The notes beneath the pieces were generated by a model. It did not search any database and was not told the origin of the DNA. It worked only from the letters and a program-made list of their open reading frames with translations. A stretch of 64,000 nucleotides of DNA, from positions 9,742 through 73,741 of the forward strand of contig JAGDMF010000008.1 in assembly GCA_017860455.1 (NCBI GenBank). The letters are read 5' to 3'. This DNA is from Bacteroidota bacterium. Lineage in GTDB: Bacteria > Bacteroidota > Bacteroidia > Bacteroidales > WCHB1-69. This document shows positions 8,132 to 47,682 of the stretch, one piece after another. Made by a program: the position numbers and the translations under genes. Each line of letters begins with the position of its first letter. The stretch's first letter is position 1.

Positions 8132-8137
8132 AAAACA

Positions 8138-9150: not shown

Positions 9151-9158
9151 TATATTTG
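9151..9158 (+). promoter_or_regulatory. Bacteroidota -7 box (TATATTTG) within a conserved promoter module
   Basis: The module TTTTGCCCTTTCAAAATATTGTAATATATTTGCAAA (9125-9163) recurs at 13900-13935. Confidence 0.55.
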
Positions 9159-9259
9159 CAAATCAATACTAATATAAAAAATACCGTTTTTCATCCAAAT
9201 ATTGAGAACTTACCGTAATATAAAGTTAAAATAGTAAGGATTATAAGCAACTTCCGTCA

Positions 9260-10293: not shown

Positions 10294-10426
10294 AAATAGT
10301 AAAAGATACAAAAAGATTAAACGAAACACATCGCTATTAAAAAATCACCATAAGAGATTAACTTTCACCATGTTTCGATGTATTGCAACCATTGAACGGA
10401 GCTTCCGACTAATAATTGATCATTAA

Positions 10427-10490
10427 CCTTTTGCCTTGTCCTTGGTTCTTTGCCCTTCGCCTTTTGCCTTTCGCCTTTTGCCCTTTTTTT
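10427..10490. repeat. Mosaic block D: CCTTTTG/CCCTTCG/CCTTTCG heptamers
   Basis: Direct reading: CCTTTTGCCTTGTCCTTGGTTCTTTGCCCTTCGCCTTTTGCCTTTCGCCTTTTGCCC. Confidence 0.9.
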
Positions 10491-10492
10491 TA

Positions 10493-10625
10493 TATATTTG
10501 CAAACGAAATAATATACACCCTTAAAGTTTTCTTAAGGTGCACAAATCTTCCAGAATGGGATGATTAGATACACTTGTTAAGGTTTTAAGGTGCATAAAT
10601 ATAAACGAGTTAGGTGCAATTTTAA
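10493..10625 (+). repeat. 133-bp conserved promoter-plus-leader unit, copy 2
   Basis: Same order of motifs as 7588-7720. The -7 box TATATTTG is at 10493-10500 and the GTTAGGTGC core at 10609-10617. The ORF starts 21 nt later. Confidence 0.85.
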
Positions 10626-10637
10626 AAATCGCTTTTT

Positions 10638-11555: not shown

Positions 11556-11564
11556 AAAAACTGC

Positions 11565-11683
11565 TACTAACCAACGCTAAACCCCTTAAGGCCTTACTCC
11601 ACGTGACAAACATAAAAATAAAAAATAAACTAACACTCGCTGGACAATTGACGTCGATGCCCTCATGGGGCTTAGCGTCGGGC
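11565..11683 (+). repeat. attC-like site with degenerate outer boxes (119 bp)
   Basis: About 85% identical by eye to 12590-12711. The inner boxes ACGCTAAACCCC and GGGGCTTAGCGT pair with one mismatch. The outer boxes TACTAAC and GTCGGGC deviate from consensus. Confidence 0.55.
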
Positions 11684-11745
11684 TTTATGCACCATATAAT
11701 TGAATTACAGTGAACTTAAATCATTCTAATTTCATAAAAATTGTG

Positions 11746-11753
11746 TATTTTTG
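11746..11753 (+). promoter_or_regulatory. -7 box (TATTTTTG) for the VbhA/Fic pair
   Basis: Lies 24 nt upstream of the ATG at 11778. The GTG at 11757 is too close to be a plausible start. Confidence 0.5.
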
Positions 11754-11777
11754 TGAGTGATTTTTAACAATTACATA

Positions 11778-11999
11778 ATGTACAAAACTATAGACATTGA
11801 TCGCAAAAATTTGACCTTAATGGGTGTAAAATTTTCTGACTTAAAAACATTGGAAAATACAGCTAATGCTATTGGGACAAATATGTTTGAAGGTTTTGAA
11901 CCAACAAGAGAATTAATTCAACTTTATGTTGATTGGAAGACCGGAGTCATCACGGAATCTGAATTATTATCAACGTTATATACCATTTATGGAAAATAA
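11778..11999 (+). CDS. VbhA-type antitoxin of a class I Fic toxin
   Basis: Small ORF containing the inhibitory (S/T)xxxE(G/N) motif as TNMFEG. Its stop overlaps the Fic ATG (ATGGAAAATAA). Confidence 0.7.
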   Translation: MYKTIDIDRKNLTLMGVKFSDLKTLENTANAIGTNMFEGFEPTRELIQLYVDWKTGVITESELLSTLYTIYGK

Positions 12000-12585
12000 C
12001 TATCATTATTTAGATACAGAACTAAAATACACAAACAAAAATGGCTTACTTTATAATCTGGCTAACATAGAAGATGAAAAAATTCTATTAGTATTTGAAA
12101 GTTTAAAAGTTTCTAAAAGGATTGAAGAGTTAAATGAAAAACCAATAAAGATAAAGAATTCAGATTCTTTGCCAAAAATTCATTATTATTTATTTCAAGA
12201 TGTTTATGAATGGGCTGGCCAAGTCAGAGTTGTTAACATAAGCAAAAATGGGAAACCATTTTTCAATAAAGAGAGATTTCATATTGCATTTAAATATCTT
12301 GATACATTAATTTTTGAATATCGTAAAATTAGAAAGACAAATAAAGCTGAATTAGCTAAGAAATTAGCTGTAATATTGGAAAACATAAACTATCTTCATC
12401 CGTTTAGAGAAGGAAATGGACGAACTCAAAGAGAATTTTTGAGAATTTTAGCATTAGAAAAAGGATTACATTTAAATTTAAATCCGCCTGATAATAAAAA
12501 TGTTTATGAAAGGTATATGCAAGGTACAATTAAAAGTGATATTGGGATATTATCAGAGTTAATTTTAGAATTAATTGAAAAATAA
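11989..12585 (+). CDS. Fic family protein (AMPylation-type toxin)
   Basis: Fic motif HPFREGNGRTQREF is present. The start was moved to the in-frame ATG at 11989, which overlaps the antitoxin stop. Confidence 0.85.
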   Translation: MENNYHYLDTELKYTNKNGLLYNLANIEDEKILLVFESLKVSKRIEELNEKPIKIKNSDSLPKIHYYLFQDVYEWAGQVRVVNISKNGKPFFNKERFHIAFKYLDTLIFEYRKIRKTNKAELAKKLAVILENINYLHPFREGNGRTQREFLRILALEKGLHLNLNPPDNKNVYERYMQGTIKSDIGILSELILELIEK

Positions 12586-12589
12586 CGGT

Positions 12590-12711
12590 GCCTAACAAAC
12601 GCTAAACCCCTTATGGGCCTACTCCACGTGACAAACGATAAACAAAAATAAATAAACTAACACTCGCTGGCCAATTGACGTCGAATGCCCACACGGGGCT
12701 TAGTGTTAGGC
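12590..12711 (+). repeat. attC-like recombination site (122 bp)
   Basis: GCCTAAC (12590-12596) and GTTAGGC (12705-12711) both match consensus exactly. Inner boxes GCTAAACCCC and GGGGCTTAG pair with one mismatch. The site starts 5 nt after the Fic stop. Confidence 0.7.
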
Positions 12712-12749
12712 CTTAGCGAACATTATAAAACAACAACAATTCACAAGTT

Positions 12750-13817
12750 ATGAAATTAGAAGATCTTGGGTATAACGAGAAATTACAAAAATTAAGAGTC
12801 GAAAATAACCTTTCAGACTTTGAAATTGGAAGAGTGATCGCGGAACATAAGGAAAGATATATTGTAAAAACCGAAAACGGAGAATATGATGCCGAAATAA
12901 CTGGTAATTTGCGATTTTCAGCAAATAGCCGCATAGATTTTCCTGCAGTTGGCGATTGGGTTGCTTTGACAACCTATGATTCAGATTTTGCCGTAATCCA
13001 TAAAATAGTTCCGAGACTATCCTTAATTACAAGACAAGCCGTTGGTCATTATGGAGAGATACAAATAATTGCTGCAAATATTGATTATGCATTTCTAATT
13101 CAAGCCGTTGACCGGGATTTTAATGTCAATAGACTTGAAAGATACCTGACTATATGTTATTCATCTAAAGTAAAACCAATAATTGTATTAACGAAAACTG
13201 ATTTAATTAATGAACAAAAGCGTACTGAAATTATTGACAGTATTAAACAACGGATAAAAGAGATTGAAATTATTTCAATTAGTAACAAAACTCAGGATGG
13301 ATACGAAGCACTGAAAAGGAGTATTGTAAAAGGGAAGACCTATTGTATGCTTGGTTCTTCAGGTGTGGGTAAGTCAACACTATTGAACAATCTCTCCGGG
13401 GAAGCTGTAATGAGAACCGACACAATTAGCCAAAGTACCAATAAAGGAAGACACATAACAAGTCACAGGGAATTAATTGTTCTTGAAAGTGGTGGAATTC
13501 TTATTGACAATCCGGGCATGAGAGAAGTTGGGATTGCGGATACATCAGACGGATTAGAAACAACTTTTGATATCATTATCCGTCTTTCTCTAAATTGTAA
13601 ATTTAAAGATTGTACTCATACGCACGAAATCGGGTGTTCGGTAATTGAAGCAGTTGAAAAAGGGGAAATTGATAAAAAATCCTATGAAAACTATCTGAAA
13701 ATGGAACGGGAAAAAGCCCATTTTGAATCAACCATTGAAGAGAAACGAAAAAAAGATAAAGAGTTTGGGAAATTTATTAAAAACTACAAAAAAGATATCA
13801 AGAAAAATAAATACTGA
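12750..13817 (+). CDS. rsgA: Ribosome small-subunit-dependent GTPase A (circularly permuted GTPase)
   Basis: Motifs in order: LTKTDL (G4), then GSSGVGKSTLLN (G1), then DNPG, with a C-terminal zinc knuckle CKFKDCTHTHEIGC. Confidence 0.85.
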   Translation: MKLEDLGYNEKLQKLRVENNLSDFEIGRVIAEHKERYIVKTENGEYDAEITGNLRFSANSRIDFPAVGDWVALTTYDSDFAVIHKIVPRLSLITRQAVGHYGEIQIIAANIDYAFLIQAVDRDFNVNRLERYLTICYSSKVKPIIVLTKTDLINEQKRTEIIDSIKQRIKEIEIISISNKTQDGYEALKRSIVKGKTYCMLGSSGVGKSTLLNNLSGEAVMRTDTISQSTNKGRHITSHRELIVLESGGILIDNPGMREVGIADTSDGLETTFDIIIRLSLNCKFKDCTHTHEIGCSVIEAVEKGEIDKKSYENYLKMEREKAHFESTIEEKRKKDKEFGKFIKNYKKDIKKNKY

Positions 13818-13825
13818 TTTCTTAT

Positions 13826-13899
13826 GAGTATTCGAGCACATGAGCACATGAGCATTCGAGCATTCGAGTATTCGAGCATTCGAGCACATGAGCACACGA
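13826..13899. repeat. Mosaic block E: octamers GAGCATTC/GAGCACAT/GAGTATTC
   Basis: This is the reverse complement of the GCTCGAAT/GCTCATGT family seen in island 2. It is followed by the promoter-like module at 13900-13935. Confidence 0.9.
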
Positions 13900-13984
13900 T
13901 TTTGCCCTTTCAAAACATTATGGAATTTTTGCAAACTAAAATAATATTAAAATACACAGATACACTCATTATAATCACCCAAAT

Positions 13985-14893
13985 ATGAAAAATGGAGTAT
14001 TTATTTTATTTATATCATTGATATCCTTTATTTTAAAAGGACAAGAAAACGAAAAGTATTTTGTTTTCAATAATGATACCCTGCAAATATTACCACTCAA
14101 ATACAGTACCAAAAACGCTTCAAATAGTGATCATAGGTTATTTGACTCTATTCCTAATGGCATTTATATTGATATAATTGATAGTAATAGTTTTGATATA
14201 ATAAATATTGAAGATATGTCTTTAAATGGACCTTATCAATATTATGAAAATTATGAACTGGTTGAATCAGGCTACTATAAATATGGTTATAAATCCGGAA
14301 TATGGAAGAAATACAGAAAAGATAAAGTAGTCGCAATTTATTATTACAAAAACAGTTATCCCACGGAAAGTGAGACTTACTATGAAAATGGAAGTAAAAA
14401 ATATAGATCAATATTAATTGAAGAAGGTGAAAAATACAGAATAATCTTAACTACAAAATGGTATCCTAATGGAAACAAAGAAGAACAAGGGTTAATCAAA
14501 ATTGATTCTAAATGCAATTCATGCGTTGATTGTTGTAAATATAAATCTTGGACATATTGGCATGAAAACGGTAATGTAAAATCCATTGGAGAATATTTCA
14601 AAACTAAAGAAAATGGCACCTGGGTTTTTTATGATTCAACCGGTTTTATATTTGAAACAATTGAATATAAAAAAGGTAATGTAAAAAGTTTAACAAAATA
14701 TTACTCAGAGCTAAGAGAGAATCAATATATTGACGTAATAGAAGTATATAACAAGGAGAATAAACTTAAATCAAAAATAATTGAATATTATACTGAAGAT
14801 TTCTTGTTTATTGAAATTTATAACAGAAAAGGGAAATTAGTAAAAAGAAAAAAAGAAAGTCTATATTCTTCAAAAACTCATTTCACTATATAA
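13985..14893 (+). CDS. MORN-repeat-variant (YwqK-like) secreted protein
   Basis: Signal peptide present. Repeated G.Y..G.K.G.W..Y...G motifs (GYYKYGYKSGIWKKY; GEYFKTKENGTWVFY). Confidence 0.6.
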   Translation: MKNGVFILFISLISFILKGQENEKYFVFNNDTLQILPLKYSTKNASNSDHRLFDSIPNGIYIDIIDSNSFDIINIEDMSLNGPYQYYENYELVESGYYKYGYKSGIWKKYRKDKVVAIYYYKNSYPTESETYYENGSKKYRSILIEEGEKYRIILTTKWYPNGNKEEQGLIKIDSKCNSCVDCCKYKSWTYWHENGNVKSIGEYFKTKENGTWVFYDSTGFIFETIEYKKGNVKSLTKYYSELRENQYIDVIEVYNKENKLKSKIIEYYTEDFLFIEIYNRKGKLVKRKKESLYSSKTHFTI

Positions 14894-14918
14894 GCAACTC
14901 GTTCACCTCACCAGATTT

Positions 14919-15166
14919 CACGGATTATAAAGACAGCAGACAGCGGACGGCAGACGGCGGACGGCGGACGGCAGACATGTGAAATGGTTGAATAGTAGCA
15001 AAATACAAAACTGATAGCTCTTCGCCCTTTCTCCAGTCTCCAGTCCCCTGTCCTTTAATGGAACGCGAATGCCACTGATTTTCAAACGCGGATTTAAACG
15101 AATTATAAAGTCTGCAGACTGCAGTCTGCAGACTGCAGTCTGCTGTCTTATGAGCACACGAACACC
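14919..15166. repeat. Mosaic block F
   Basis: Contains GACGGCAG-type heptamers (reverse orientation), CCAGTCY heptamers, the ~85-bp module shared with 6910-6996, CTGCAGA/CTGCAGT words and GAGCACAC. Confidence 0.9.
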
Positions 15167-15169
15167 CGA

Positions 15170-15568
15170 TTAAAAGCTACTTCCTATTGTTGTATTGTTG
15201 TCTACTAAAATTTCATTTTCAATTTCAGCAGTTACCGGAATCGCTAGGGAGGTGTACATCGCCGGATTGAGTTGTGATGATGTCAACGGTAAATAGTAAA
15301 ATTTTACTCTTACTTTATTGCAATTTGCATTTAGCTCTACAACATCTGATACTCCTCCGCCTGTGGATACATCACCTAAAGCAATAGTTCCTAATTCCTG
15401 ATTATCCTGATACATGATTAAGGCCGCACTGTATAATGTACCGTCTAATCCTGGTACGTCACTTTCAATTGTGTGTTCGTTTTTTACATAAGCTGTTGTT
15501 TTGGGATCACTACATGATACTACAACTCCACAAATTGCTGCCAGTAAAATAACCATCATTTTTTTCAT
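15170..15568 (-). CDS. Hypothetical lipoprotein
   Basis: Signal peptide with lipobox (VVSCSD). 132 aa, no family recognised. Confidence 0.55.
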   Translation of the reverse strand: MKKMMVILLAAICGVVVSCSDPKTTAYVKNEHTIESDVPGLDGTLYSAALIMYQDNQELGTIALGDVSTGGGVSDVVELNANCNKVRVKFYYLPLTSSQLNPAMYTSLAIPVTAEIENEILVDNNTTIGSSF

Positions 15569-22116: not shown

Positions 22117-24573
22117 CTATTTTTTCCAAAGTTTTCTAACGTTTAGATAGTCTATATAATATAAAATTTTTACTGAAATACTATTGGTTTTAGGCATATC
22201 AAATGTGTCTTCAATATTTCTGAAAAAGTTTAATTCACTTAAAGCAGCATCAGATTCAATGGCATTTTTGTAAATAATAGAGATGGTACTGCCAGGTGCA
22301 AACTGCCAGGAATAGATAAAATCTATAAAAAAAACATTATAACTGAAGTTTCTGTCTGATTGATACGTTGTATTGAGTTCAATGCCACCATCTTCCAATA
22401 AAGTGTAGTAATCATGATATTGACCTGTGTACCAGTAATGTCTTCCAACTAAACTTAAACTCATATCGTTTTTAATCAAATATTGTACCGATAAATTATT
22501 TTCGTAAGTAATCAATTGGCGTCCACCGAATATGATCTCATCCGGACTAATTACTTCAACAAAACCAATATTGTAAGTGTTGTTAAAATAATTAAAGGAG
22601 TAACTCATTTTGAAATTATTTTTAATTCTGTAACTGATCATAGGTGTGATTCCATAAGCAGCTCCGTCAAAAACTTCTGAGAAGTCCCCGTAACTGAGTT
22701 CAATGGCATAAGAAAATGGTTTACGCTCATCTGATGAGTAGGAAGTGGAGATGTTATAATTTTTATATTTTCTGAAAACTCTACCTGGAACCCTGGGTTC
22801 ATAATAATCGTACGCTATAAATAGCATACCGTATAAATTGAGATTGTAATAGGCGTAATTGTTCAGAAGAAAAGTAAAATTAGCATTCATTGAATTGCCA
22901 ACACATTTGAAAGTTTCAGGATTTAAAACATGGGTATAAGTAATGGAATGGTAAGATTCTCTAAATAATTTATTGGGTTTATAAGTATCATAAGAAAAAT
23001 AGATTTTTTCCGACTGCTTGTTTCCTATCACATAATATCCCATATCTCTTGAATCATAAGTTTTGCCGATATAGGTATGAGATATTCCAAATTGGAAATT
23101 ACCGGATGCTTTTCTAAAACCGGCAAAATATCGATGCCCTATGGAGCTATTGTATTGATTACTTGTTGAATCTGATCCTGTAAGTATTTGACTTATCGCA
23201 TAATTCCCATCAATAGCATAAACACTGTTTTTATTCATTAAAGTGAAACCGGTTCCGGTTACATTTGCCGTTCTATGAGTTGTTGGTTTTATTACATTGG
23301 TGTTGATGAGGTAAACAGAAGAATTGTTTTTAAGCAATTGATCAAATACGATCACATTGTAGTTGGCATAAGGTTCTGTTAGCACTTTTCGTTCATTACC
23401 TAGAGAATCTTCAATAATCGCATAAGTGTTGTCTGTAATCGCATTAAACACCCCAATTCCTAAGCCATTGTTGTTTCTTCCGGTTAGTTTAACTGCATTG
23501 ATTAACCTTACGGTAGATGGGTTTTCAGTAATTGTTTCCCCATTTTGAATATTCCCGTAAACATTGGAATATTGATCAGGCGTTTTTCCGATTCTTCTCG
23601 AATAAAAGAGTTGGTTTTTATTGAACAATTCAGTACCTTCTTTGAAAAATGGTCGGTTTTCATTAAAAACCACCTCGTCATATCCTAAAGTTTTAATTTT
23701 ATTATCGGATTGTACCTGGCTAAAATCGGGCATCAAGGTTAAATCTATTGTGAATTTCTCATCCAATCCATACTTTAAATCTGCTCCGAAATTATAGGAG
23801 AAAGCATTTTCGTAATGAATACTCTGATCACTATTTTGAAAAGGTTCGCTTTTATAGTATAAATTCACAAATGGACTGACTGACAATCGAATAGGTGGTT
23901 TAATATCCTGAAGACCTTTTAAAGTACCCCACAAAGCACGGGGACTGGAATTGTTTTTGGGAATCAATGCCCACTGATCTGTTTCATTATGTCGTTTGAT
24001 TTCCCTCACAATCTGAAATCCCCAATCCTGAATGGAAGTGCTGGGAAAACGGATTGCTGAGTAAGGAATACTCATCTCTACAACCCATCCATTTTCGCCA
24101 ATTTTAGTTGCACTATGCCAAACCGCATCATAAGTTGGATCTGAATCCCGATAATCAAATTGAACACCTGAGGCTGAGATTCCAAATACGTAAGCATCTT
24201 GTCTTTTATAGGTATCAAATCCAATATAGAGCATATCACTGATAATCTCATGGTTATCCCGGGATCCTAATTGGGCATAAATACTATCGGGAGCAGAATC
24301 GTATAAAATAGCCCCAATATAAATGGCGAAATTATCATAAGTGATCTTAATCTCAGCTTTTTGGGATGGATCTGCCCCAAAAATGGGAAATTGTTGTTTA
24401 AAATCAGTAATGGATTTCAGATTAATCCAACAAGGATCGTCTAAAACTCCATCTATTCTGGGAGCTATTTCTGTGCGGGATGCTACAAACTCTTGGGTTA
24501 TGTTTTGTGAGTGTAAAGTTAAAATAGTAAAAAAAGAAATAATAATTACGATTGTAGCTTTTCGGATTCCCAT
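22117..24573 (-). CDS. CBM9-like + DUF5916 domain outer-membrane protein
   Basis: The N-terminal IDGVLDDPCW motif is followed by a long beta-rich region typical of DUF5916 proteins. Confidence 0.65.
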   Translation of the reverse strand: MGIRKATIVIIISFFTILTLHSQNITQEFVASRTEIAPRIDGVLDDPCWINLKSITDFKQQFPIFGADPSQKAEIKITYDNFAIYIGAILYDSAPDSIYAQLGSRDNHEIISDMLYIGFDTYKRQDAYVFGISASGVQFDYRDSDPTYDAVWHSATKIGENGWVVEMSIPYSAIRFPSTSIQDWGFQIVREIKRHNETDQWALIPKNNSSPRALWGTLKGLQDIKPPIRLSVSPFVNLYYKSEPFQNSDQSIHYENAFSYNFGADLKYGLDEKFTIDLTLMPDFSQVQSDNKIKTLGYDEVVFNENRPFFKEGTELFNKNQLFYSRRIGKTPDQYSNVYGNIQNGETITENPSTVRLINAVKLTGRNNNGLGIGVFNAITDNTYAIIEDSLGNERKVLTEPYANYNVIVFDQLLKNNSSVYLINTNVIKPTTHRTANVTGTGFTLMNKNSVYAIDGNYAISQILTGSDSTSNQYNSSIGHRYFAGFRKASGNFQFGISHTYIGKTYDSRDMGYYVIGNKQSEKIYFSYDTYKPNKLFRESYHSITYTHVLNPETFKCVGNSMNANFTFLLNNYAYYNLNLYGMLFIAYDYYEPRVPGRVFRKYKNYNISTSYSSDERKPFSYAIELSYGDFSEVFDGAAYGITPMISYRIKNNFKMSYSFNYFNNTYNIGFVEVISPDEIIFGGRQLITYENNLSVQYLIKNDMSLSLVGRHYWYTGQYHDYYTLLEDGGIELNTTYQSDRNFSYNVFFIDFIYSWQFAPGSTISIIYKNAIESDAALSELNFFRNIEDTFDMPKTNSISVKILYYIDYLNVRKLWKK

Positions 24574-26388: not shown

Positions 26389-26922
26389 CTATAAAGCGAT
26401 CAGATCTTTATGATCAACTTCAAAAATTATGGAACAAGAAAGTGCTTCAATATACACCTGAATTTTATGGTTATTTTTGGTTTCTAAAACCTCACCGGAA
26501 AATCCTTTCAATGCTCCATTTGCTATTTTGACTTTTTGTCCATGTTGTAATGGATGGCATGAAATATCAAAAAGATATTGTTCCTGAACCAACACTTTAA
26601 TCAGGTCAATCTGTTCCGGTGGAATCACAGCTGCTTTTCCACAAAAACAAATATAGGAGATCACAGAGGGAACATCCAATACTTTTTGGTACTCTTTTGC
26701 ACTTACACAAACGAATAGATATGGCCTAAATAGGGGTTCCTCAATCCATCTTTTACGATCTGACCACTGGTGTAATACCCTTTTCTTGGGTAAGTAAACT
26801 TCGATGTTTTTTTCAAGTAATTCATTTTCTATAGTTTTTTCATGATTCATACGAGTGTAAATGGCATGCCATTGATACTTCATGTTGTTTCCTTCATTAT
26901 AAAGCTTCGCCATATCAGTCAC
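26389..26922 (-). CDS. UpxY-family (NusG-like) transcription antiterminator
   Basis: W.AIYT....EK.....L....IE.YLP NGN-domain pattern with a KOW-like C-terminus (GQKVKI.NGALKG..G.V). The likely true start is the MKYQWH methionine near 26883. Confidence 0.8.
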   Translation of the reverse strand: MTDMAKLYNEGNNMKYQWHAIYTRMNHEKTIENELLEKNIEVYLPKKRVLHQWSDRKRWIEEPLFRPYLFVCVSAKEYQKVLDVPSVISYICFCGKAAVIPPEQIDLIKVLVQEQYLFDISCHPLQHGQKVKIANGALKGFSGEVLETKNNHKIQVYIEALSCSIIFEVDHKDLIAL

Positions 26923-27040: not shown

Positions 27041-27210
27041 ACATTTAACATTTAACATTTAACAAATAACATTTAACATTTAACAAATAACAAATAACAA
27101 TTATTCATTTTTCATTTTTCATTATTCATTTTGCATTTTTCATTTTTCATTATTCATTTTTCATTTTTCATTATTCATTATTCATTTGCTAATTCCCCTT
27201 TCGCCCTTTT
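27041..27210 (+). repeat. Mosaic block G
   Basis: ACATTTA/ACAAATA heptamers (27041-27100), then TTCATTW heptamers (27101-27188), then TGCTAATTCCCCTTTCGCCC. Confidence 0.95.
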
Positions 27211-27276
27211 TATCGAGTATAGAATAAAAAAATACAAAAAAAGTTAAAAAATACGAGTGAGGAAGAATAATTGTTG

Positions 27277-27284
27277 TATATTTG
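27277..27284 (+). promoter_or_regulatory. -7 box TATATTTG inside a conserved ~40-nt promoter module
   Basis: GAGTGAGGAAGAATAATTGTTGTATATTTGCAAAAAATT (27255-27293) is nearly repeated at 29083-29121. The box lies inside the track ORF, 14 nt upstream of the ATG at 27299. Confidence 0.6.
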
Positions 27285-27298
27285 CAAAAAATTCATCT

Positions 27299-28561
27299 AT
27301 GAAAGAATATTTTGAATCAATTCGGAAATTTAATTTTTGGAATCAACAAATTCCAAATTTAGGTTTTATTCGCACGGATTATACGGATAAAATAATGAGT
27401 TACGTAGGGAACAAACTTGTAAAAGTACTTGTAGGTCAGCGTCGTTCGGGTAAAAGCTATTTATTAAGACAAATTGCTAATCAACTAATAACCAATGGAG
27501 TTGATCCCAAAAATATTTTTTATATCAATAAAGAGTTCATAGAACTAGATTTTGTTAAAACTTACAAAGATTTAGAAAACTTACTTATTTATTATAAAGA
27601 TGAATTGAATCCAATAGGTAAAAAGTATCTGTTTATTGATGAAATTCAAAATATAGAAGGGTGGGAGCGGTTTGTGAACTCACATGCTCAGGATTTTGTT
27701 GAACAATATGAAATATTTATTAGTGGCTCTAATTCAAAATTGTTATCCGGAGAATTATCGACTTTATTGTCAGGTAGATATGTTCAATTTGAAATTTTTA
27801 CCTTTAGTTTTCAAGAATATTTTCAATTTTTGAATATTGAGAATTCGAAACAATCTTATATTGAGTATCTTGAGACCGGGGGATTGCCGGAATTGTTTTC
27901 TTTACCCAATCATGAAACAAAAAGAAATTATATTTCTGCTCTGAAAGATTCAGTTCTATTAAGAGATATTATACAAAGATACAATATAAAAGATCCTAAA
28001 TTATTAGAAGATTTATTTATCTTTTTAGTAAATAATGCTTCCAATTTAATCTCAATTAATTCAATTATAAATTACTATAAGGGATTGAATAAAAAAACTA
28101 CCTATGATACCCTATCAAATTATATCCATTATATCGAAGAAACATTTTTAATACACAAAGCGGAACGTTATAATATTCGAGGGAAAGATCTTATTGCAGG
28201 AAACTGTAAGTATTATATCAATGATTTAGCCTATAAAAATTTACTTTATCCGGGAGTTGGTTACGGAATTGGGTATAAACTTGAAAATATTATTTTTTTA
28301 GAACTAAGAAGAGCAGGTTTTGAGGTTTATGTTGGTGTAGAGAAAGGAAAAGAAGTTGATTTCGTTGCCATAAAAGGGGATAGAAAGATCTATTTTCAAG
28401 TTGCCTATTTGATTCCGGATGAATCAACTATGGAAAGAGAATATAACTCGTTGGAAACTATCAAAGATCATTATGAAAAGTATCTGGTTTCACTGGATGA
28501 TTTTCAATTTTCATCCAGAAATGGCATACAACATATACAAGCCTGGAATTTGAAGTTTTAG
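27299..28561 (+). CDS. AAA-type ATPase with DUF4143 C-terminal domain
   Basis: Walker A GQRRSGKS and Walker B LFIDEIQ are present, with a restriction-endonuclease-like tail (EVDFV). The start was moved to 27299 because the promoter box lies upstream of it. Confidence 0.8.
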   Translation: MKEYFESIRKFNFWNQQIPNLGFIRTDYTDKIMSYVGNKLVKVLVGQRRSGKSYLLRQIANQLITNGVDPKNIFYINKEFIELDFVKTYKDLENLLIYYKDELNPIGKKYLFIDEIQNIEGWERFVNSHAQDFVEQYEIFISGSNSKLLSGELSTLLSGRYVQFEIFTFSFQEYFQFLNIENSKQSYIEYLETGGLPELFSLPNHETKRNYISALKDSVLLRDIIQRYNIKDPKLLEDLFIFLVNNASNLISINSIINYYKGLNKKTTYDTLSNYIHYIEETFLIHKAERYNIRGKDLIAGNCKYYINDLAYKNLLYPGVGYGIGYKLENIIFLELRRAGFEVYVGVEKGKEVDFVAIKGDRKIYFQVAYLIPDESTMEREYNSLETIKDHYEKYLVSLDDFQFSSRNGIQHIQAWNLKF

Positions 28562-29070
28562 GATTCCTTTCGCCTTATAGAACCCTGATGAAACAGATGG
28601 AACAGATGAAAACAGATTTTTTCTGTATCACTAAGTCTCTCAATGTTTTCAAAAATGCTCGAATGCTCGAATGCTCGTGTACTCGTGTGCTCGATTGTTA
28701 AGCTTTTTAAAAGTTGAAAGGTTGAACGCTTCGCTGTTTAAAGGTTGTAAGGTTGAAATATAATTAAAACTTAAAGTTCAAAAAACACTGTGATACACCT
28801 TCTAACCCAGTGAAACACTGTGTAACTAATTTTTATTTATTTCATGGAATGCAAAAAAGCGAAAGGCAAAGGGCAAAGGTCTTAATTCGTTTATAATTCG
28901 TGAATTCGTGGCATTCTTATTAAAGTTGAAAGGTTGAACGATTGCTCGTGTGCTCGAATGCTCATGTGCTCAATGTGCTCAATTTTTCATTTTTCATTTT
29001 TCATTTTTCATTTTTCATTTTTCATTATTCATTTGCTAATTCACTAATTTGCTCATTTGCTAATTTTTTT
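28562..29070 (+). repeat. Mosaic block H
   Basis: Words in order: AACAGATG; GCTCGAAT/GCTCGTGT octamers; AAGGTTG; a CACTGTG module shared with 5838-5876; GCGAAAGGCAAAGG (reverse of CCTTTCG); AATTCGTG; a second octamer run; TTCATTT x6; TGCTAATTCACTAATTTGCTCATTTGCTAATT. Confidence 0.95.
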
Positions 29071-29105
29071 TAGCCTTCTTATAGAGTATGGAAGAAAATT
29101 TGTTG

Positions 29106-29113
29106 TATATTTG
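29106..29113 (+). promoter_or_regulatory. -7 box TATATTTG upstream of the AbiE pair
   Basis: Same module as at 27255-27293. The ATG lies 60 nt downstream. Confidence 0.55.
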
Positions 29114-29173
29114 CAAAAAATTTAAAATGTAAACTAAAGGTAATAAAAAACAAAACGAATAGTTCACAAAAAA

Positions 29174-29749
29174 ATGAAAACAGGTAATTTAATTTTTAAT
29201 TTATATAGTAATTCTCGAACTGTTTATAAGTTTATTGATATTGCAATGTTGCTTGGAGAAACTAATTATAATTCACTTAAGATGAAATTAAATTATTACG
29301 TAAAAACAGGTAGATTACTTAATCCACGCAGGGGAATATATTCAAAGAAAAAATATAATGAGGAGGAGTTAGCCTGTCGTGTTTTTACACCTGCTTATAT
29401 ATCTTTAGAATATGTATTGCAAAAAGCAGGTGTGGTTTTTCAATACAACAGTAATATAACGGTGGTTTCCTATTTAACCAGAGATATTGAAATTGATCAA
29501 AAGATCTATTGTTTTAGAAAAATTAAAAACGAAATACTCGCTTCCCCACTTGGAATTATTCAAACCGAACAAGCTTATGCTATTGCATCAGTAGAACGTG
29601 CATTTTTAGATTTACTTTACTTAAATGGAGAGATCTATTTTGACAATTTAAGACCAATAAATAGAGATAAAGTTGAAGAACTTCTTCCTTTATATAATTC
29701 GAAAACATTAGTCAAACGAGCAAAAAAAATATTGGACAATGAACATTAA
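29174..29749 (+). CDS. AbiEi-like antitoxin/transcriptional regulator (type IV TA)
   Basis: Small ORF overlapping the AbiEii start by 11 nt. Its size and position fit the partner of an AbiEii nucleotidyltransferase. The family call rests mainly on context. Confidence 0.55.
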   Translation: MKTGNLIFNLYSNSRTVYKFIDIAMLLGETNYNSLKMKLNYYVKTGRLLNPRRGIYSKKKYNEEELACRVFTPAYISLEYVLQKAGVVFQYNSNITVVSYLTRDIEIDQKIYCFRKIKNEILASPLGIIQTEQAYAIASVERAFLDLLYLNGEIYFDNLRPINRDKVEELLPLYNSKTLVKRAKKILDNEH

Positions 29750-30437
29750 TAAACATAAATTTTTTATGCTTCAAATTCTGAAAGATATTTTTTCAGATAT
29801 AGAACTTTCTAATTATCTAGGGTTTAAAGGTGGTACAGCATTGATGTTTTTTCATAAATTACCCCGTTTTTCCGTAGATCTGGATTTTGATTTATTGGAT
29901 TCTGAAAAAGAAGATTTAGTGTTTTTTAAGTTAAGAAACATACTTCAAAAATATGGATCTATTGATGATGAAGCTAAAAAATTCTTCGGGTTAATTCTTG
30001 TTTTGGATTATAGCAAAGGGGAAAGAAAACTAAAAATGGAAGTATCAAACAGACCATTCGACAATCACTATGAATTACTTAATTATAATGGTATTAACAT
30101 GCGCGTTTTAAGTATTTCAGACATGTTTGCTCATAAACTTTGTGCAATGCTAGACAGGAGAGAGATTGCCAATCGGGATATTTTTGATTGTTGGTTTTTT
30201 TTAGAAAATAGAACTCCTATAAACAAAACGATTGTTGAATCAAGAATGAATACTTCTTTAGAAGAATATATTCAACAATGTATTACATATTTGGAAAATC
30301 AGCCTAATAAAAGTTTATTAAACGGATTAGGTGAACTCATGGATGAAAAAATGAAATCATTTGTTCGAAATAAACTTAAAAACGAACTCATTATACTATT
30401 AAAAGTTTTCAAAGAATTTCCAATTATTGTGAAATAA
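29739..30437 (+). CDS. AbiEii/AbiGii-family nucleotidyltransferase toxin
   Basis: The N-terminal FKGGTAL......LPRFS.DLDF motif is characteristic of the family. Confidence 0.8.
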   Translation: MNINKHKFFMLQILKDIFSDIELSNYLGFKGGTALMFFHKLPRFSVDLDFDLLDSEKEDLVFFKLRNILQKYGSIDDEAKKFFGLILVLDYSKGERKLKMEVSNRPFDNHYELLNYNGINMRVLSISDMFAHKLCAMLDRREIANRDIFDCWFFLENRTPINKTIVESRMNTSLEEYIQQCITYLENQPNKSLLNGLGELMDEKMKSFVRNKLKNELIILLKVFKEFPIIVK

Positions 30438-30448
30438 GGATAACATTC

Positions 30449-30580
30449 ATGTGCTCGAATGCTCGAATGCTCGAATGTTCGATTGCTCAATTTTTCATTA
30501 TTCATTATTCATTATTCATTATTCATTTTTCATTTTTCATTATTCATTTGCTAATTCACTAATTTGCTCATTTGCTAATT
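30449..30580 (+). repeat. Composite module I (octamers -> heptamers -> TGCTAATT tail)
   Basis: GCTCGAAT x3, then TTCATTW x9, then TGCTAATTCACTAATTTGCTCATTTGCTAATT. Same word order as 28943-29065 and 32075-32218. Confidence 0.95.
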
Positions 30581-30600
30581 CTAATTCCTTTTACCTGTTT

Positions 30601-31875
30601 TTAATCTTCTTTCTTTAAAATTGCCTCAATATCTTTGGTGAATCCTTTATAAAAACCGCAAGAGCTCCAAATCACTTGTTTGGTTTTCATGTCAATAAGA
30701 TATAATTCAGGGTATCCTCTGCAATCACTCATCTCTTTGGATAAGATAGTGTCCAATGAGGAATCATAAGAACAGACGATGTCAGATTTTATGTTAAAAG
30801 TATTTATTATTCTTTTAATTTTTGCAGTGTCTTTATCGATCACATTTAAACTGACAAATTTGATTAAAGATTTGTCAAACAAACTATCGATTGTTCCTAA
30901 CTCTTTCATAGCCATGATACATGGAGCACAGCCGACATACCAAAGATCCAAAAACAGATATGAAGATTGAATACTATCTGAGTACAGTGTGTCGCCTGTT
31001 AAAAGTGGAAATTTCCAGGAAGGCATATATTTTAATGAATCTTTTTCAGGTAAAACAGAATTATTCTCTATCCATTTTGTTTCTTTGGAAGAAACTATTT
31101 GAATGATAGAATCACAAATTGTCTCTCTTAATAATGAATCCTTTTTTTCTTGTGTTCTTAATTCCTGTTGATTATATTTTTTTCTAAGTTCATCCATTCT
31201 GAAAGTAATGGTGTCTAAAATGACAGGATTTATATAATCATAGAATTGAAAATCAATGATTTGAACTGTTCCATATAGTCTTTCTATATTTTCAAAAATA
31301 CCGGAGTATTCAAGGTTTACCCAATAATGGGTTTTATAATCAAATTCCCACTCAGTGATTATATCGGTTAAAGTTTCCTCATTAGGAGATGTTAAAAGAT
31401 ATCTCAAATTTTTTACATCCATTTTTGGGGTTATTTTTAAAATTGTATCCTTCTCCCATGAATGGGCAGTTTCTGAAGTGATTTTAAAAAAAGCGAAATT
31501 TGTAAATGGATCTGTTGTTGGATCAAAATCCTCTTCAAAAGAACGGTACTTTACATAATCTTCTTTATTGAAGTTCATTAAAAGCATCGTTCCTGATTTA
31601 CAAAACAAGTATCTATGATCAGGGTTTTCCTTAATTAAAAAATATTTATAATCATTAGGAGTATAAATAAAATAGCCTGTTTCTGTATGAGAATCAGTTG
31701 TGTCGTTATCAGTTTTATATACACATTTTAATTTAACATAACCGGATTGTATTTTCTCATTTTTTTCAACTATTTTCAGAAGTTTAGCCGGAACCTGTGC
31801 CTGGATTGAATTCAATAGATGAAAAACAAGTATCATTGAGATCCCCATTATACGAAATGTTTTTTTATTACTCAT
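30601..31875 (-). CDS. TlpA-like thioredoxin-fold protein with large N-terminal domain
   Basis: The C-terminal WYVGCAPC active-site motif sits in a redoxin-like fold. A signal peptide follows the ATG at 31875. The track start at 31926 is TTG. Confidence 0.6.
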   Translation of the reverse strand: MSNKKTFRIMGISMILVFHLLNSIQAQVPAKLLKIVEKNEKIQSGYVKLKCVYKTDNDTTDSHTETGYFIYTPNDYKYFLIKENPDHRYLFCKSGTMLLMNFNKEDYVKYRSFEEDFDPTTDPFTNFAFFKITSETAHSWEKDTILKITPKMDVKNLRYLLTSPNEETLTDIITEWEFDYKTHYWVNLEYSGIFENIERLYGTVQIIDFQFYDYINPVILDTITFRMDELRKKYNQQELRTQEKKDSLLRETICDSIIQIVSSKETKWIENNSVLPEKDSLKYMPSWKFPLLTGDTLYSDSIQSSYLFLDLWYVGCAPCIMAMKELGTIDSLFDKSLIKFVSLNVIDKDTAKIKRIINTFNIKSDIVCSYDSSLDTILSKEMSDCRGYPELYLIDMKTKQVIWSSCGFYKGFTKDIEAILKKED

Positions 31876-31989
31876 AATGTGTTTTATTAAATTTTCAACA
31901 TTTACATTACTCTTTTTGCGATGCAAATATAAAAAATAAATAAATACAAAACAAATAATTTTTTGCCCTTAAGAAGAACCAAAATAACT

Positions 31990-32272
31990 TCTGCGTAAAT
32001 CTGCGAAATTTGCGGGCAAAAATTTATAGAAATCACCCGCAGATCACGCTGATTTCCGCAGAAACTAACCATTTACTCGAATGCTCGAATGCTCGAATGC
32101 TCGAATGCTCGAATGCTCGAATGCTCGAATGCTCATGTGCTCATTATTCATTATTCATTATTCATTATTCATTATTCATTCTTCATTTGCTAATACACTA
32201 ATTTGCTCATTTGTTAATTCCCCTTTCGCCCTTCCCCTAATTAGCTTATTATCACATTATCACATTAGCTTA
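31990..32272 (+). repeat. Mosaic block J including composite module
   Basis: ATCTGCG/CGCAGAT words, then GCTCGAAT x6, GCTCATGT, TTCATTA x6, TGCTAATACACTAATTTGCTCATTTGTTAATT, CCCTTTCGCCC, and finally TTAGCTTATTATCACATTATCACATTAGCTTATTA. Confidence 0.95.
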
Positions 32273-32980
32273 TTATTTCTCCATCGCCAATTTTTTCAAT
32301 TCGGTTGGCATCTTTTCAATGGCATACCGTAATGATGTGCGGGGCATGATCGCTTTTTTCTCTATTACATATTGGAATACTTCTTCCTGATGCGCCTGAC
32401 TGGCCGCTTTTAACATCCATCCATACCCTTTTTGTACCAAATCATCAGGATCAAGAAGTAAAATATCTGCAATCTTGAAGATATGTTCTAAAAATAACCC
32501 TTTTCTTGCCGGAATAATCAATGTTACGGCTGCAGCTCTTTTTACCCATCTATTGTCCGCATCAGTAAAATGGATCAGATCATCTATTAGCTCCGGAAAT
32601 TGCTCAACCAATGTTCCAACTGTGTGATTACATAATGTGTCACAACTGGCCCAATTGTTGATATATTCGTTGATCCATTTTTGAAAAATAAGAAAGTCAT
32701 CTTTAGTATATTGGTTAGCTAATTGATAGGACCAATCACTTGCTACAAACGATTCTTCCAAATTCTCGGATTGAAATAATTGCTCACAATACTCCAGAAT
32801 TCTCGGTTTTGGTTCATTCATAATCTCTTTGAATAATTGATCCGCTATTTTGTTGACCTTTGGAATGGTAACACCATAAAAATCAATTTTTTCTTTAAAA
32901 AAATGTTGCCCTGTCTCTAATGTTTTGGAGTCGATGTTTTTCCTGAGTTCCTCTCTGACTTTAAGGATTATTTTTTCCAT
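32273..32980 (-). CDS. DNA alkylation repair protein (AlkD-like HEAT-repeat family)
   Basis: WASCD.LC, WVKRAAAVTLI and GYGWMLK motifs are present. The start was moved to the ATG (MEKIILK); the track start is TTG. Confidence 0.75.
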   Translation of the reverse strand: MEKIILKVREELRKNIDSKTLETGQHFFKEKIDFYGVTIPKVNKIADQLFKEIMNEPKPRILEYCEQLFQSENLEESFVASDWSYQLANQYTKDDFLIFQKWINEYINNWASCDTLCNHTVGTLVEQFPELIDDLIHFTDADNRWVKRAAAVTLIIPARKGLFLEHIFKIADILLLDPDDLVQKGYGWMLKAASQAHQEEVFQYVIEKKAIMPRTSLRYAIEKMPTELKKLAMEK

Positions 32981-46509: not shown

Positions 46510-47682
46510 ATGAAAACAAGAAAAAAAATTCCTAGGTATGTGTTTGAATATTCCATATACGGAGTGATTTGGTTTTTACTATTTGCCGGTCAGGTTTTTG
46601 AAGGTATAAACAATTTACATTCAGATTCATCGGATTCCTCTATTTTAAAATCATTTATTTTTTTATTTCCATTTTTTGTGTTTTTTTTGATCCATGATTT
46701 CTCGTTAAGCTATTTTGAGATCAAAAAGAAAAAAAGATGGATTTATATCTTAATTACTGCTCTTGCAACCATCTTGATGATGTTTCATCATGAATTTGTT
46801 TCGCCTGAGTTTAAAAAATATGATAAATTTAAGAAATTTGATTCTATTGAAAAAATGGAACATCACCCATTTGAAAATGGGGAACATCGCTTTGAAAATG
46901 GAGATCATCGGTTTGAAAATGGAGATCATCGGTTTGATGATAAACATAATTTTAATAAACCTCCTAAAGGCCCCAGACCGTTCAAATTTTTTCCACCGAT
47001 TGCCAATACTTTATTTGTACTATTAATTATTGTTTTTAACAGAGGTTTAAAAATGCAATTTCGATTTTTAGCCAATGAGAAAAGGTTTATGGAATTGGAA
47101 AATGAGAATATTCAAATAGAATTAAATTATTTAAAACACCAGATCAATCCACACTTTTTTATGAATACGCTCAATAGTATTCATGCATTAGTTAGAAGTA
47201 ATCCTGAAAAAGCGGAAGATGCCATTGTTGGATTCTCTAAGATTATGAGGTATCTTTTGTATGAATCTAATCTTGAAAAAGTATCTCTTGAAAAAGAATT
47301 GATTTTAATTCGTAACTATTTAGATTTAATGAGATTATTGCTTACAGATCATGTAAAAATCAATGTTGAATTACCTTGGATCTATCCTTCTGTTACAATT
47401 CCTCCTCTCATTTATATCACATTTCTGGAAAACGCATTTAAACACGGAATTAGTTATTCCAAAGAGTCTTATATCAATTTTAAAGTTACCTATGATGAAC
47501 GTTTTATATATAGTGTCATCCAGAATAGTAATCATCATCAAAAAACAGAATCAGGATCCGGTATTGGACTTGAAAATGTAAAAAAGAGATTAGAACTGAT
47601 TTATGGATCAAGTTTTAAAATGAAAATTTCTGAGAATCAAAATGATTTTAAAGTTGAACTAAAAATACCTATTTCACAATGA
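46510..47682 (+). CDS. LytS-type sensor histidine kinase with His-rich tandem repeat
   Basis: H-box LKHQINPHFFMNTLNS and ATPase motif (LENAFKHG, GSGIGLENV). The HRFENGD repeat lies at about 46855-46945. Confidence 0.9.
   Translation: MKTRKKIPRYVFEYSIYGVIWFLLFAGQVFEGINNLHSDSSDSSILKSFIFLFPFFVFFLIHDFSLSYFEIKKKKRWIYILITALATILMMFHHEFVSPEFKKYDKFKKFDSIEKMEHHPFENGEHRFENGDHRFENGDHRFDDKHNFNKPPKGPRPFKFFPPIANTLFVLLIIVFNRGLKMQFRFLANEKRFMELENENIQIELNYLKHQINPHFFMNTLNSIHALVRSNPEKAEDAIVGFSKIMRYLLYESNLEKVSLEKELILIRNYLDLMRLLLTDHVKINVELPWIYPSVTIPPLIYITFLENAFKHGISYSKESYINFKVTYDERFIYSVIQNSNHHQKTESGSGIGLENVKKRLELIYGSSFKMKISENQNDFKVELKIPISQ

Follow-up and report, generated by a model that had tools for sequence, protein, structure and literature searches.

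Introduction

Among the long simple-sequence repeats of prokaryotes, heptamer arrays are the most frequent kind; they are classic in cyanobacteria as short tandemly repeated repetitive (STRR) sequences, which Mazel reportedly described there in 1990. Pneumococcal BOX elements are ordered as boxA-(boxB)n-boxC from modules of 45-59 nt, fold stably and occur genome-wide without being tied to cassette boundaries, and in chromosomal integrons toxin-antitoxin cargo is common. Long simple-sequence repeats (LSSRs) were treated in Mrazek 2007 (as cited in PMC4679880), and multi-word heptamer assemblages were described in a few Bacteroidetes, where close relatives lacked the arrays at the corresponding intergenic site, contigs broke in them, and "a role in gene rearrangement" was suspected (MacGregor 2015, PMC4679880). 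STRRs received only passing mentions in the literature searched. Neisserial intergenic mosaic elements (NIMEs) consist of 50-150-bp RS units bounded by 20-bp dRS3 inverted repeats (Bentley 2007, PMC1797815), and reused or mobile promoters have been documented (PMC3575422). The present work concerns a 64,000-nt stretch of DNA from a Bacteroidota bacterium of the order Bacteroidales (GenBank assembly GCA_017860455.1, contig JAGDMF010000008.1, positions 9,742 to 73,741; hereafter the window), in which four non-coding blocks of tandem 7-8-nt words alternate with gene units between a NusG-like gene and an AlkD gene.

From the comparison of this locus with its relatives, the four blocks are paralogous copies of one composite of simple-sequence arrays, with 7- and 8-nt units, that is specific to the lineage, and the region from NusG to AlkD is a strain-variable defence-gene hotspot. 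With moderate confidence, it is proposed that the blocks provide passive direct-repeat homology for RecA-type insertion and deletion of whole gene units, the arrays themselves being driven by slippage. What is new here is the ordered composite of arrays, the way in which its direct repeats, all in one orientation, enclose every unit of a defence hotspot, and the comparative link to turnover of the units.

Results

Word order and homology of the four blocks

An earlier note, made from the letters of the window alone, had placed four blocks with one word order on the plus strand, and both sequence reading and repeat parsing bore this out (coordinates in Table 2). In each block, octamers of the GCTCGAAT family, or ACAWWTA heptamers in block 1, were followed by TTCATTW heptamers and then by octamers of the TGCTAATT type, which in blocks 2-4 formed a 32-nt tail of octamer period, TGCTAATT-CACTAATT-TGCTCATT-TGCTAATT. 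The 20-nt junction between heptamers and tail (TTCATTNTTCATTTGCTAAT) was found in 4 copies against 0 in 100 shuffles, the octamer pattern 27 times against 0.4 expected, the heptamer pair 37 times against 3.2 and the tail core 3 times against 0.2; the octamer and heptamer word patterns thereby exceeded shuffle expectation 10- to 60-fold. The blocks were pairwise 80-89% identical over 95-131 nt, and the longest exact runs common to block pairs were 20-59 nt, with the 59-mer in blocks 2 and 3 and an exact 34-mer in blocks 3 and 4 (89% identical). Because the orthologue of block 1 in a relative's contig, L022, carried the full 32-nt tail, all four blocks are homologous throughout. The common junction, the tail, the exact 59-mer and the L022 orthologue together argue for copies of one evolving element and against independent microsatellites, as the note had proposed. 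Head-to-tail units within the 1-11-nt range, several copies long and above chance, together with copy-number polymorphism at the same locus, place the arrays with simple-sequence repeats of the LSSR/STRR type.

Other details of the note needed adjustment. A further word, CCCTTTCGCCC, was said to follow the modules often; it did so only after blocks 1 and 4. The orientation was constant in 4/4 blocks whatever the strand of the genes, which alone is weak (p = 0.125), and the octamer family recurred reverse-complemented in another island of the window, as the note had seen.

The window has a G+C content of about 33% and contains two AT-rich islands, island 1 at 5.4-15.2 kb and island 2, with the four blocks, at 27.0-32.3 kb. 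The intergenic DNA of both islands consisted almost wholly of tandem 7-8-nt words of many families (GTCTGCC, TCCCCAG, CCCTTYGCC, TTCATTW, GCTCGAAT, AGCTTATT, ACAGATG-type and CACAGTG-type). With Tandem Repeats Finder, arrays of period 7/8 had 2.5-12.6 copies and scores up to 134, and all those scoring at least 40 lay inside the two islands, with 0 in the other ~48 kb. In the chromosome-level assembly OW818690.1, a more distant relative (single contig, 3.47 Mb), the arrays at the orthologous locus (L021) were confined to the two borders of the hotspot.

A longer composite, a fifth copy and changes in place

The module proved to be the 3' part of a longer one-stranded composite in the relatives' contigs L049 and L057, where C-rich, ACAGATG and CACAGTG words stood ahead of the octamers, heptamers and tail. 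The order there was (CCCTTYGCC)n, AATAGAAC with (ACAGATG-type)n, CATCAGTCTGTTGTCA and (CACAGTGTTTC-type)n, then (GCTCGAAT)n, the heptamers and the TGCTAATT tail. A fifth copy, missing from the list of the earlier note, followed the same word order in the window and was cut off in its octamers (Table 2). The octamer array looked split there by a 245-nt stretch with a reverse C-rich array at 28859-28879; this stretch probably remains from a unit on the minus strand that has been lost.

A profile hidden Markov model built from the four blocks was searched against the window and the relatives' DNA at hand. Full-length copies were found in blocks 2-4, L022, L049, L057 (diverged) and L019/L020, the last two being orthologues of the right part of block 4 on contigs that end inside the heptamers; fragments only were found at block 1, 5487-5603, 13802-13886, 28654-28699 and several places of OW818690.1. 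The words graded from GCTCGAAT over GCTCATGT, GCTCAATGT and GCTCAATT-TTTCATT to TGCTCATT/TGCTAATT, which suggests that they arose by differentiation of one ancestral array. The composite word order is lineage-specific and not universal. In another island of OW818690.1 (L015), four composites showed a different grammar, with AGCTYATT octamers, CACAGTG, TTCATTW, GCTAATTT, CTATCAG and GGTTTTA words and with C-rich words on the opposite strand; they bracketed an IS3 transposase, a PDC-S01 ATPase and two unknown genes.

At the site next to the NusG-like gene, the flanks of the window and L022 were 95% identical. The first array held nine copies of ACAWWTA in the window and five in L022, and AGTAATA/AGAGGTA heptamers were present instead in OW818690.1. 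The window, L022 and OW818690.1 had 12, 7 and 5 copies of TTCATTW and 1, 4 and none of the tail octamers, respectively. Array copy numbers, which may be imprecise where they come from short-read assemblies, thus change fast at orthologous sites.

Unit content of the hotspot in relatives

Relatives were reached through AlkD homologues; their flanks were syntenic and their contents differed (Table 1). The AlkD of the window was 100% identical to a protein (P0001) from a 'Bacteroidetes bacterium' metagenome-assembled genome (MAG), encoded on a 101-kb contig, and the closest named relatives of its MnmA were Bacteroidales MAGs at 76%. About 120 kb of DNA of the lineage was open to inspection, and the genome and metagenome collections scanned do not include the source genome. 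Two relatives from sample 3300075153 of the Joint Genome Institute (JGI), with AlkD identities of 89% and 77%, were represented by gene tables without DNA, and their block content was deduced from spacing, together with short contigs that encode the identical AlkD in other samples.

Table 1. Contents of the hotspot in the window and its relatives, from the NusG-like side to the AlkD side
Locus	AlkD identity	Order of contents
Window		block 1, DUF4143, block 2, AbiEi/AbiEii, block 3, 424 aa, block 4
JGI contig	89%	DUF4143, 342 nt, AbiE, ~198-nt block
L022		block 1, DUF4143, 295 aa, AAA (contig end)
L056	86%	(contig start) 268 aa, AAA, WYL, C-rich array
OW818690.1	80%	block 1', AbiE, C-rich/ACAGAT words, 269 aa, IetA-like AAA, WYL, C-rich array
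JGI contig	77%	303 nt, AbiE, 38 nt
L060	72%	319 nt with only a 107-nt 3' remnant of DUF4143

The seven loci tabulated, window included, showed at least six different arrangements in the interval from NusG to AlkD; six and not seven, because L022 and L056 are partial contigs from opposite ends that could belong to the same arrangement. The AbiE pair was present in four relatives, among them both JGI relatives and OW818690.1, and absent in L060. The earlier note had suggested checking whether the flanked units are individually present or absent in relatives, and this was true of the DUF4143 unit, the 424-aa unit and the AbiE pair. Its view of the modules as marks of cassette-like boundaries agrees with this result, in that the blocks coincide with the borders of individually variable units. 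Alternative content thus occupied a syntenic site between the same conserved flanks, as in hotspots of the minimal mobile element (MME) type.

An indel without arrays was also observed in the lineage. The 818-aa DUF5916/CBM9 gene at 22117-24573, between a LytTR regulator and an MRJP gene, was absent in the 77% relative, which has a 201-nt gap there. Not all indels in the lineage involve arrays, since the borders of this gene in the window lack them.

Breakpoints and mobility of the 424-aa unit

Where a unit of the window was missing in a relative, two blocks stood here against one block, or a collapsed 38-nt version, there. Window segments 27144-27291 and 28980-29125 both aligned to one segment of OW818690.1 (L021, 15905-15758), each alignment spanning heptamers, C-rich words and the promoter module described below; the DUF4143 unit therefore lies between two direct repeats of which the relative has one. 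The 424-aa unit has block 3 on one side and block 4 on the other; at that place the 89% relative had a single ~198-nt block. In the 77% relative, the 38-nt spacer AAAAGAACATTTATGTGCTTATTTGCTAATTCGCCCTTTCAC was equivalent to block 3's left edge joined with block 4's right edge, each word being present once and in unchanged order. The deletion in L060 fused two C-rich arrays, the one that follows DUF4143 (window 28560) and the one in block 4 (window 32229), and homology between L022 and the window stopped at 28620, just past the ACAGATG array. Breakpoints were accordingly scattered over heptamer arrays, C-rich arrays, the shared promoter module and, in L060, the inside of an open reading frame (ORF).

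The 424-aa unit was known at three loci, namely this hotspot, a site beside a uracil phosphoribosyltransferase (UPRTase) gene (P0125) and a site beside another gene (L057). The UPRTase-side homologue (79%, gene table only) came from the same metagenome as two of the relatives. At both loci with DNA, the window and L057, the composite lay at the 3' side of the unit; the L057 homologue was 91% identical, its composite had the same relative orientation, and homology started inside the tail (window 30552). In L049, the UPRTase site kept the composite and 95 nt of the promoter region of the 424-aa gene (L049 2294-2388) ahead of a different gene. Many homologues of the 424-aa gene lay on contigs of 1.5-2.2 kb, about one gene long, as expected if flanking repeats break the assemblies.

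Genes and coordinates of the hotspot

The features of the locus are collected in Table 2. The NusG-like gene adjoined the hotspot in every relative with sequence on that side and is followed leftward by a LytTR two-component pair, and BlaR1/BlaI accompany AlkD on the right. AbiEi and AbiEii form an abortive-infection toxin-antitoxin pair. The gene labels of the earlier note were upheld by Pfam for DUF4143/AAA_14, AbiEii and AlkD and by PADLOC only for AbiEi. The label 'TlpA-like' for the 424-aa protein came down to a weak C-terminal thioredoxin-fold match (TlpA/ResA-type PDB 2lja, E = 6e-4, CAPC motif), and this protein had no match in Pfam or PADLOC.

Table 2. Features of the hotspot and the related array in island 1 (window positions)
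Feature	Position	Strand	Content and evidence
NusG-like (UpxY-type) gene, conserved left flank	26389-26922	-	Pfam NusG 1.2e-13
Block 1	27041-27210	+	(ACATTTA/ACAAATA)x9 27041-27103, (TTCATTW)x12 27104-27187, TGCTAATT x1, then CCCCTTTCGCCC
Upstream/promoter module, copy 1	27211-27293	+	GAGTRTGGAAGAA...TTGTTGTATATTTGCAAAAAATT; TAnnTTTG-type box 27277-27288
Unit 1 cargo, AAA_14/DUF4143 ATPase	27299-28561	+	Pfam; PADLOC candidate defence family PDC-S01, 1.1e-139
Fifth copy, cut off in octamers	28562-28700	+	CCTTTCGCC, ATAGAAC and ACAGATG-type words 28582-28617, degenerate stretch, octamers 28654-28697
245-nt stretch splitting the octamer array	28698-28942		AAGTTGAAAGGTTGAACG direct repeats at bounds; reverse-oriented C-rich and CACTGTG words
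Block 2	28943-29065	+	5 GCTCGAAT-family octamers 28943-28984, 7 heptamers 28986-29034, tail TGCTAATTCACTAATTTGCTCATTTGCTAATT 29034-29065, then promoter module
Upstream/promoter module, copy 2	29066-29122	+	box 29106-29117
Unit 2 cargo, AbiEi and AbiEii	29174-29749, 29739-30437	+	PADLOC 4.2e-78 / 1.5e-107; Pfam AbiEii
Block 3	30445-30580	+	octamers 30445-30492, 8 heptamers 30494-30549, tail 30549-30580, then 3' end of 424-aa gene
Unit 3 cargo, 424-aa secreted-type protein	30601-31875	-	C-terminal thioredoxin-like CAPC domain
Upstream region of 424-aa gene	31876-32074	-	TATATTTGCA on minus strand 31922-31931, CGCAGAT-type words
Block 4	32075-32274	+	8 octamers 32075-32138, 6 heptamers 32147-32188, tail 32188-32219 (2 substitutions), then CCCCTTTCGCCC
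Block 4, right end	up to 32274	+	CCCCTTTCGCCCTTCCCC, then AGCTTATT/ATCACATT octamers into AlkD stop codon
AlkD DNA-alkylation repair gene, 235 aa, conserved right flank	32273-32980	-	Pfam 2.5e-60
Octamer array of island 1	13826-13893	-	same octamer family, alone, without heptamers or tail

A promoter module shared by units

The window carried the same upstream module before both DUF4143 and AbiEi; L022 had it before DUF4143, and OW818690.1 (L021) before AbiEi. In the alignment it ran up to the TATATTTGCAAAAAAT box, directly after which the sequences parted ways, and a 39-nt direct repeat with its partner at 29084-29122 (90% identical) linked the two copies of the window. The TAnnTTTG-type box pattern occurred 10 times in the window against 1 expected, and a sigma-70 promoter scan gave 32 sites against 33.5 expected. 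Contingency-locus (phase-variation) repeats switch expression by copy number from within an ORF or between core promoter elements. The heptamer and octamer arrays of the hotspot were intergenic, not between promoter elements, and ended ~60 nt or more ahead of the TAnnTTTG box. A terminator scan found no intrinsic terminators between the units, the sole terminator-like site being inside a gene.

The DUF4143 gene is annotated publicly from GTG 27257 (434 aa), and the call in the JGI relative is 420 aa. Its true start is probably ATG 27299, because an ORF from GTG 27257 would hold the TATATTTGCAAA promoter-like box.

Comparison with known classes of repeats

Several known identities were considered for the blocks and rejected. 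In single-stranded DNA folding, blocks 2-4 folded no better than shuffles on both strands (z -0.63 to +1.64). They are not attC sites: they lack the imperfect inverted-repeat hairpin (R''/L''-L'/R') that the positive control at 8128-8245 showed (z = -6.45), and no IntI or tyrosine recombinase was found among the 51 larger ORFs scanned in the window. Miniature inverted-repeat transposable elements (MITEs), repetitive extragenic palindromic (REP) elements and BOX elements were discarded for the want of an inverted-repeat pair at the block ends, of a fold and of edge duplication. The contiguous 7-8-nt units do not form an array of clustered regularly interspaced short palindromic repeats (CRISPR), which has 25-40-nt repeats and unique spacers of about the same length. 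Direct orientation only, without inverted repeats, excludes an invertible promoter, and the unit length and the absence of the 20-bp dRS3 inverted repeat (ATTCCCN8GGGAAT) exclude a NIME. A search of the entire window against Rfam matched nothing at gathering score, 5300-6000 gave nothing relevant at E <= 1, and viral contigs gave 0 matches to the junction and octamer patterns.

The earlier note had further held that the blocks act by a mechanism different from attC and had advised a search for a co-occurring recombinase, transposase or reverse transcriptase. The blocks are indeed not attC-like. A distinct dedicated mechanism found no support; Pfam detected no gene of those three kinds among the 51 larger ORFs scanned in the 64 kb, and ordinary direct-repeat recombination together with slippage accounts for everything seen.

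An assembly artefact was also rejected, as the same structures occurred in independent ENA, NCBI, Logan and JGI assemblies and in OW818690.1, and the longest exact run of 59 nt is below the k-mer of 141 suggested by the MEGAHIT-style contig name k141_....

Scanning genome contigs with the 20-nt junction gave 16 single matches in unrelated taxa, in part chance or coding and in part analogous arrays (Anabaena, Chryseolinea, Rikenellaceae, Anaerolineales and OW818690.1). When metagenomes were scanned for the 18-nt tail core, 33 matches resulted, with real modules in L022 and L049 only. Adjacent tandem arrays of TTCATTW and TGCTAATT were observed in Anabaena sp. UHCC 0451 (L002, 7507-7625) and in MAGs of Anaerolineales, Rikenellaceae and Chryseolinea (L007, L010, L001). 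The recurrence of words across phyla may be without significance, because the search pattern itself selected those matches.

Island 1 and further observations

Island 1 (5326-15170) was a second hypervariable hotspot of ~9.8 kb with at least 10 ORFs. In OW818690.1 (L059 11062-13516), the same flanks, an 841-aa OmpA/PD40 gene and MnmA with a small neighbour, enclosed ~2 kb with two small ORFs (Septknot and a DUF1016_N fragment). Three attC-like imperfect hairpins with GTTAGGTGC-type / CCTAAC...GTTAGG(T)GC ends were located at 8128-8245, 11560-11700 (z -2.5) and 12588-12732 (z -3.7). They separated single ORFs, including a Fic-type toxin-antitoxin pair and an RsgA-like GTPase. Given that the window has no integron integrase, island 1 looks like an integrase-less attC cluster among simple-sequence arrays.

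A leader of ~150 nt at 7575-7725 and 10490-10630 followed a TATATTTGCAAAC box, ended in GAGTTAGGTGCAATTTTA and preceded unrelated ORFs. Its copies were ~95% identical over the ~150-nt core, with a mean column identity of 87% over a 195-column alignment. The leader was rejected as an attC-like hairpin (z +0.4 and -1.4) and may be a shared 5' untranslated region or an attI-like junction.

A GC-rich element with ~95 nt conserved (TGGGCGTTCCGGCACCACCC...CTGCCGTCGGGCTT...GTCCGCTTCGC) was present at 5601-5735 in the window and, on the minus strand, at L059 13345-13150 and L015 7610-7420. It stood at island borders, once in the window and twice in OW818690.1, with GTCYGYM and TTCATTT heptamers alongside and no Rfam match; L059 had a short inverted piece of it at the opposite island border.

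Longer tandem repeats were also recorded. At 5453-5568, a 57-nt unit was tandemly duplicated with 96% identity; it is a higher-order repeat of the arrays, since the unit itself consists of CGTCTGC-type and TTCATTW heptamers. A 21-nt repeat, ATAATTGCAGGAGGTTATTTT, occupied 7217-7474 between heptamer arrays (12.3 copies, 81% match), and the ORFs overlapping it on both strands are probably spurious. Another 21-nt repeat at 46857-46937 (3.2-3.4 copies) lay inside the histidine-kinase ORF 46510-47682 and is presumably a coding 7-residue repeat.

Discussion

RecA needs roughly 25-30 nt of exact match, and direct repeats of the length and identity found here are recombinogenic. As direct repeats of ~130-150 nt with exact runs of 20-59 nt, the blocks qualify as substrates for homologous recombination. 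In the proposed course of events, replication slippage would make, expand and contract each array, and the composite, often with the standard promoter module, would be duplicated together with gene units. Co-oriented blocks could then recombine by ordinary homologous (RecA-type) recombination. Unequal crossing-over or loop-out between two blocks would delete a unit and leave one block. Gain would proceed by single-crossover (Campbell-type) integration or by double-crossover replacement by incoming block-bearing DNA; a circle or fragment with a block could integrate at any resident block, after which the unit would lie between two co-oriented blocks. Integration at a resident block would keep co-orientation, which would account for the uniform direction of the island's blocks irrespective of gene strand. 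The outcome would be an integron-like, unit-by-unit turnover of defence genes without a dedicated recombinase.

Several points weigh against this proposal. At many unit boundaries, relatives carried just a C-rich array or the collapsed 38-nt version, so full blocks are not required for turnover. The other endpoint of the L060 deletion was inside the DUF4143 ORF and not in an array, and several breakpoints were simply gene ends, as expected of any gene-level indel. We infer, from sequence comparison, that recombination between blocks was the source of the indels and that it depended on RecA, and the polarity of each event, gain or loss, is likewise tentative. The statements on composite order and orientation are based on the ~120 kb inspected, and two key relatives contribute gene tables with block content read from spacing. 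The model also does not account for why these words recur or why arrays are so abundant here.

Two other readings assign the blocks no primary part in recombination. It is rather unlikely that they are neutral filler, slippage junk that builds up in unconstrained AT-rich intergenic DNA and is copied passively with no causal part in turnover. The fast shifts in copy number, down to single words in some relatives, and the many different word families filling both islands would fit it, as would the turnover of units in relatives at boundaries with short C-rich arrays only and the core-adjacent DUF5916 indel, which occurred without arrays. Passive filler would hardly be expected, however, to place each window-specific unit precisely between two co-oriented homologous blocks of which the relative has one, nor to be taken along by the 424-aa unit to other loci, and such repeats are, as stated above, generally recombinogenic. 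It is unlikely, and somewhat more so, that the blocks are regulatory modules, that is, the upstream part of a portable promoter acting as a protein-binding array, as an insulator between convergent or divergent units or as a phase-variable element. Selection would then act on the expression of newly gained genes, and recombination would be incidental. Within 60-90 nt of blocks 1 and 2 comes the same TATATTTGCAAA promoter-like module, each time ahead of an unrelated gene, three more such boxes adjoin C-rich arrays in island 1, and the lack of intrinsic terminators between units means that something else may separate their transcription; regulatory roles for heptamer arrays were proposed before (MacGregor 2015, PMC4679880), and promoter reuse is on record (PMC3575422). 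Yet neither block 3 nor block 4 precedes a promoter of its own orientation, block 3 even lying between convergent 3' ends, and the arrays are outside the -33/-7 interval and the interval from promoter to start codon, where copy number matters most. The array content was wholly replaced at the orthologous site of OW818690.1, and no binding protein was identified.

Readings that make the blocks active elements are less probable still. A dedicated cassette system, with the composite or word array as the site of an unlinked recombinase or with arrays synthesised at insertion junctions by a specialised polymerase, would be a functional analogue of attC/IntI and would account for same-orientation sites between single, individually variable units and for a word order kept across several loci of the lineage, and the mixture of arrays with attC-like cassettes in island 1 means that cassette biology operates in this genome. 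We nevertheless regard as improbable that the composite is an att-like site of a lineage-specific Bacteroidales cassette exchange, with an attC-type platform (island 1) and a repeat-array-type platform (both islands) side by side; if so, two cassette platforms would both diversify defence genes. Crossover positions vary, the blocks lack an inverted repeat or hairpin, relatives have many unit boundaries without them, L015 departs in word order and strand relations, and, apart from the IS3 transposase there, no recombinase, reverse transcriptase or transposase was found in the 64 kb or the hotspot loci of the relatives. A non-autonomous mobile element of MITE, BOX or REP kind, inserting itself into intergenic DNA, is very improbable. 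Its modular A-(B)n-C organisation with variable internal copy number and the copies at several unrelated loci (L049, L057) would be in line with such an element, but the blocks have no terminal inverted repeats, target-site duplications at their ends, stable fold or nearby transposase, and the copies were always beside variable units, the ~48 kb of core DNA in the window having none.

If direct-repeat recombination between blocks is the correct reading, simple-sequence composites would act as portable homology by which defence units are gained, lost and moved between loci without an integrase, a cheap and recombinase-independent counterpart of the integron. It would also give a concrete role to the long-unexplained heptamer arrays of Bacteroidetes and cyanobacteria. 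The arrays flag variable hotspots and the sites where short-read assemblies break, and many contigs with homologues measure 1.3-2.6 kb, roughly the length of one gene. Defence islands of such lineages will for this reason be systematically fragmented in, or missing from, MAGs.

Compared with STRR and LSSR sequences, the arrays described here share head-to-tail intergenic units of 7 nt (here also 8 nt), several word families side by side, variation between strains and the breaking of assemblies, and the Anabaena array (L002) is of the same style. They differ in that one ordered composite, including octamer arrays and a fixed 32-nt tail, forms co-oriented direct repeats around each defence unit, and in that unit indels are tied to the repeats by comparison. 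BOX elements are likewise ordered, modular intergenic repeats of variable internal copy number, whereas the block words are of 7-8 nt, unfolded and located at unit boundaries. The near-identical upstream region, including a -7-type box, before the unrelated DUF4143 and AbiEi genes recalls reused promoters, with the difference that the promoter is coupled here to a simple-sequence composite in a recombination hotspot. Integrons resemble the locus in their single-gene units, same-orientation sites and individual presence or absence of units, and the cargo of the hotspot includes a toxin-antitoxin (abortive-infection) pair; in contrast to attC sites and integrons, there is no hairpin (z about 0), GTTRRRY core or IntI, the boundaries are imprecise and the units have their own promoters. 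The closest functional parallel is that of NIMEs and MMEs (PMC1797815), in which non-coding repeat arrays lie by variable genes, alternative cassettes occupy the space between conserved flanks, and turnover is ascribed to homologous recombination without a dedicated recombinase. Unlike NIMEs, the blocks consist of 7-8-nt tandem words without inverted repeats, and unlike MMEs, whose crossovers fall in the conserved flanking genes, the crossovers here apparently fall in repeat blocks inside the hotspot.

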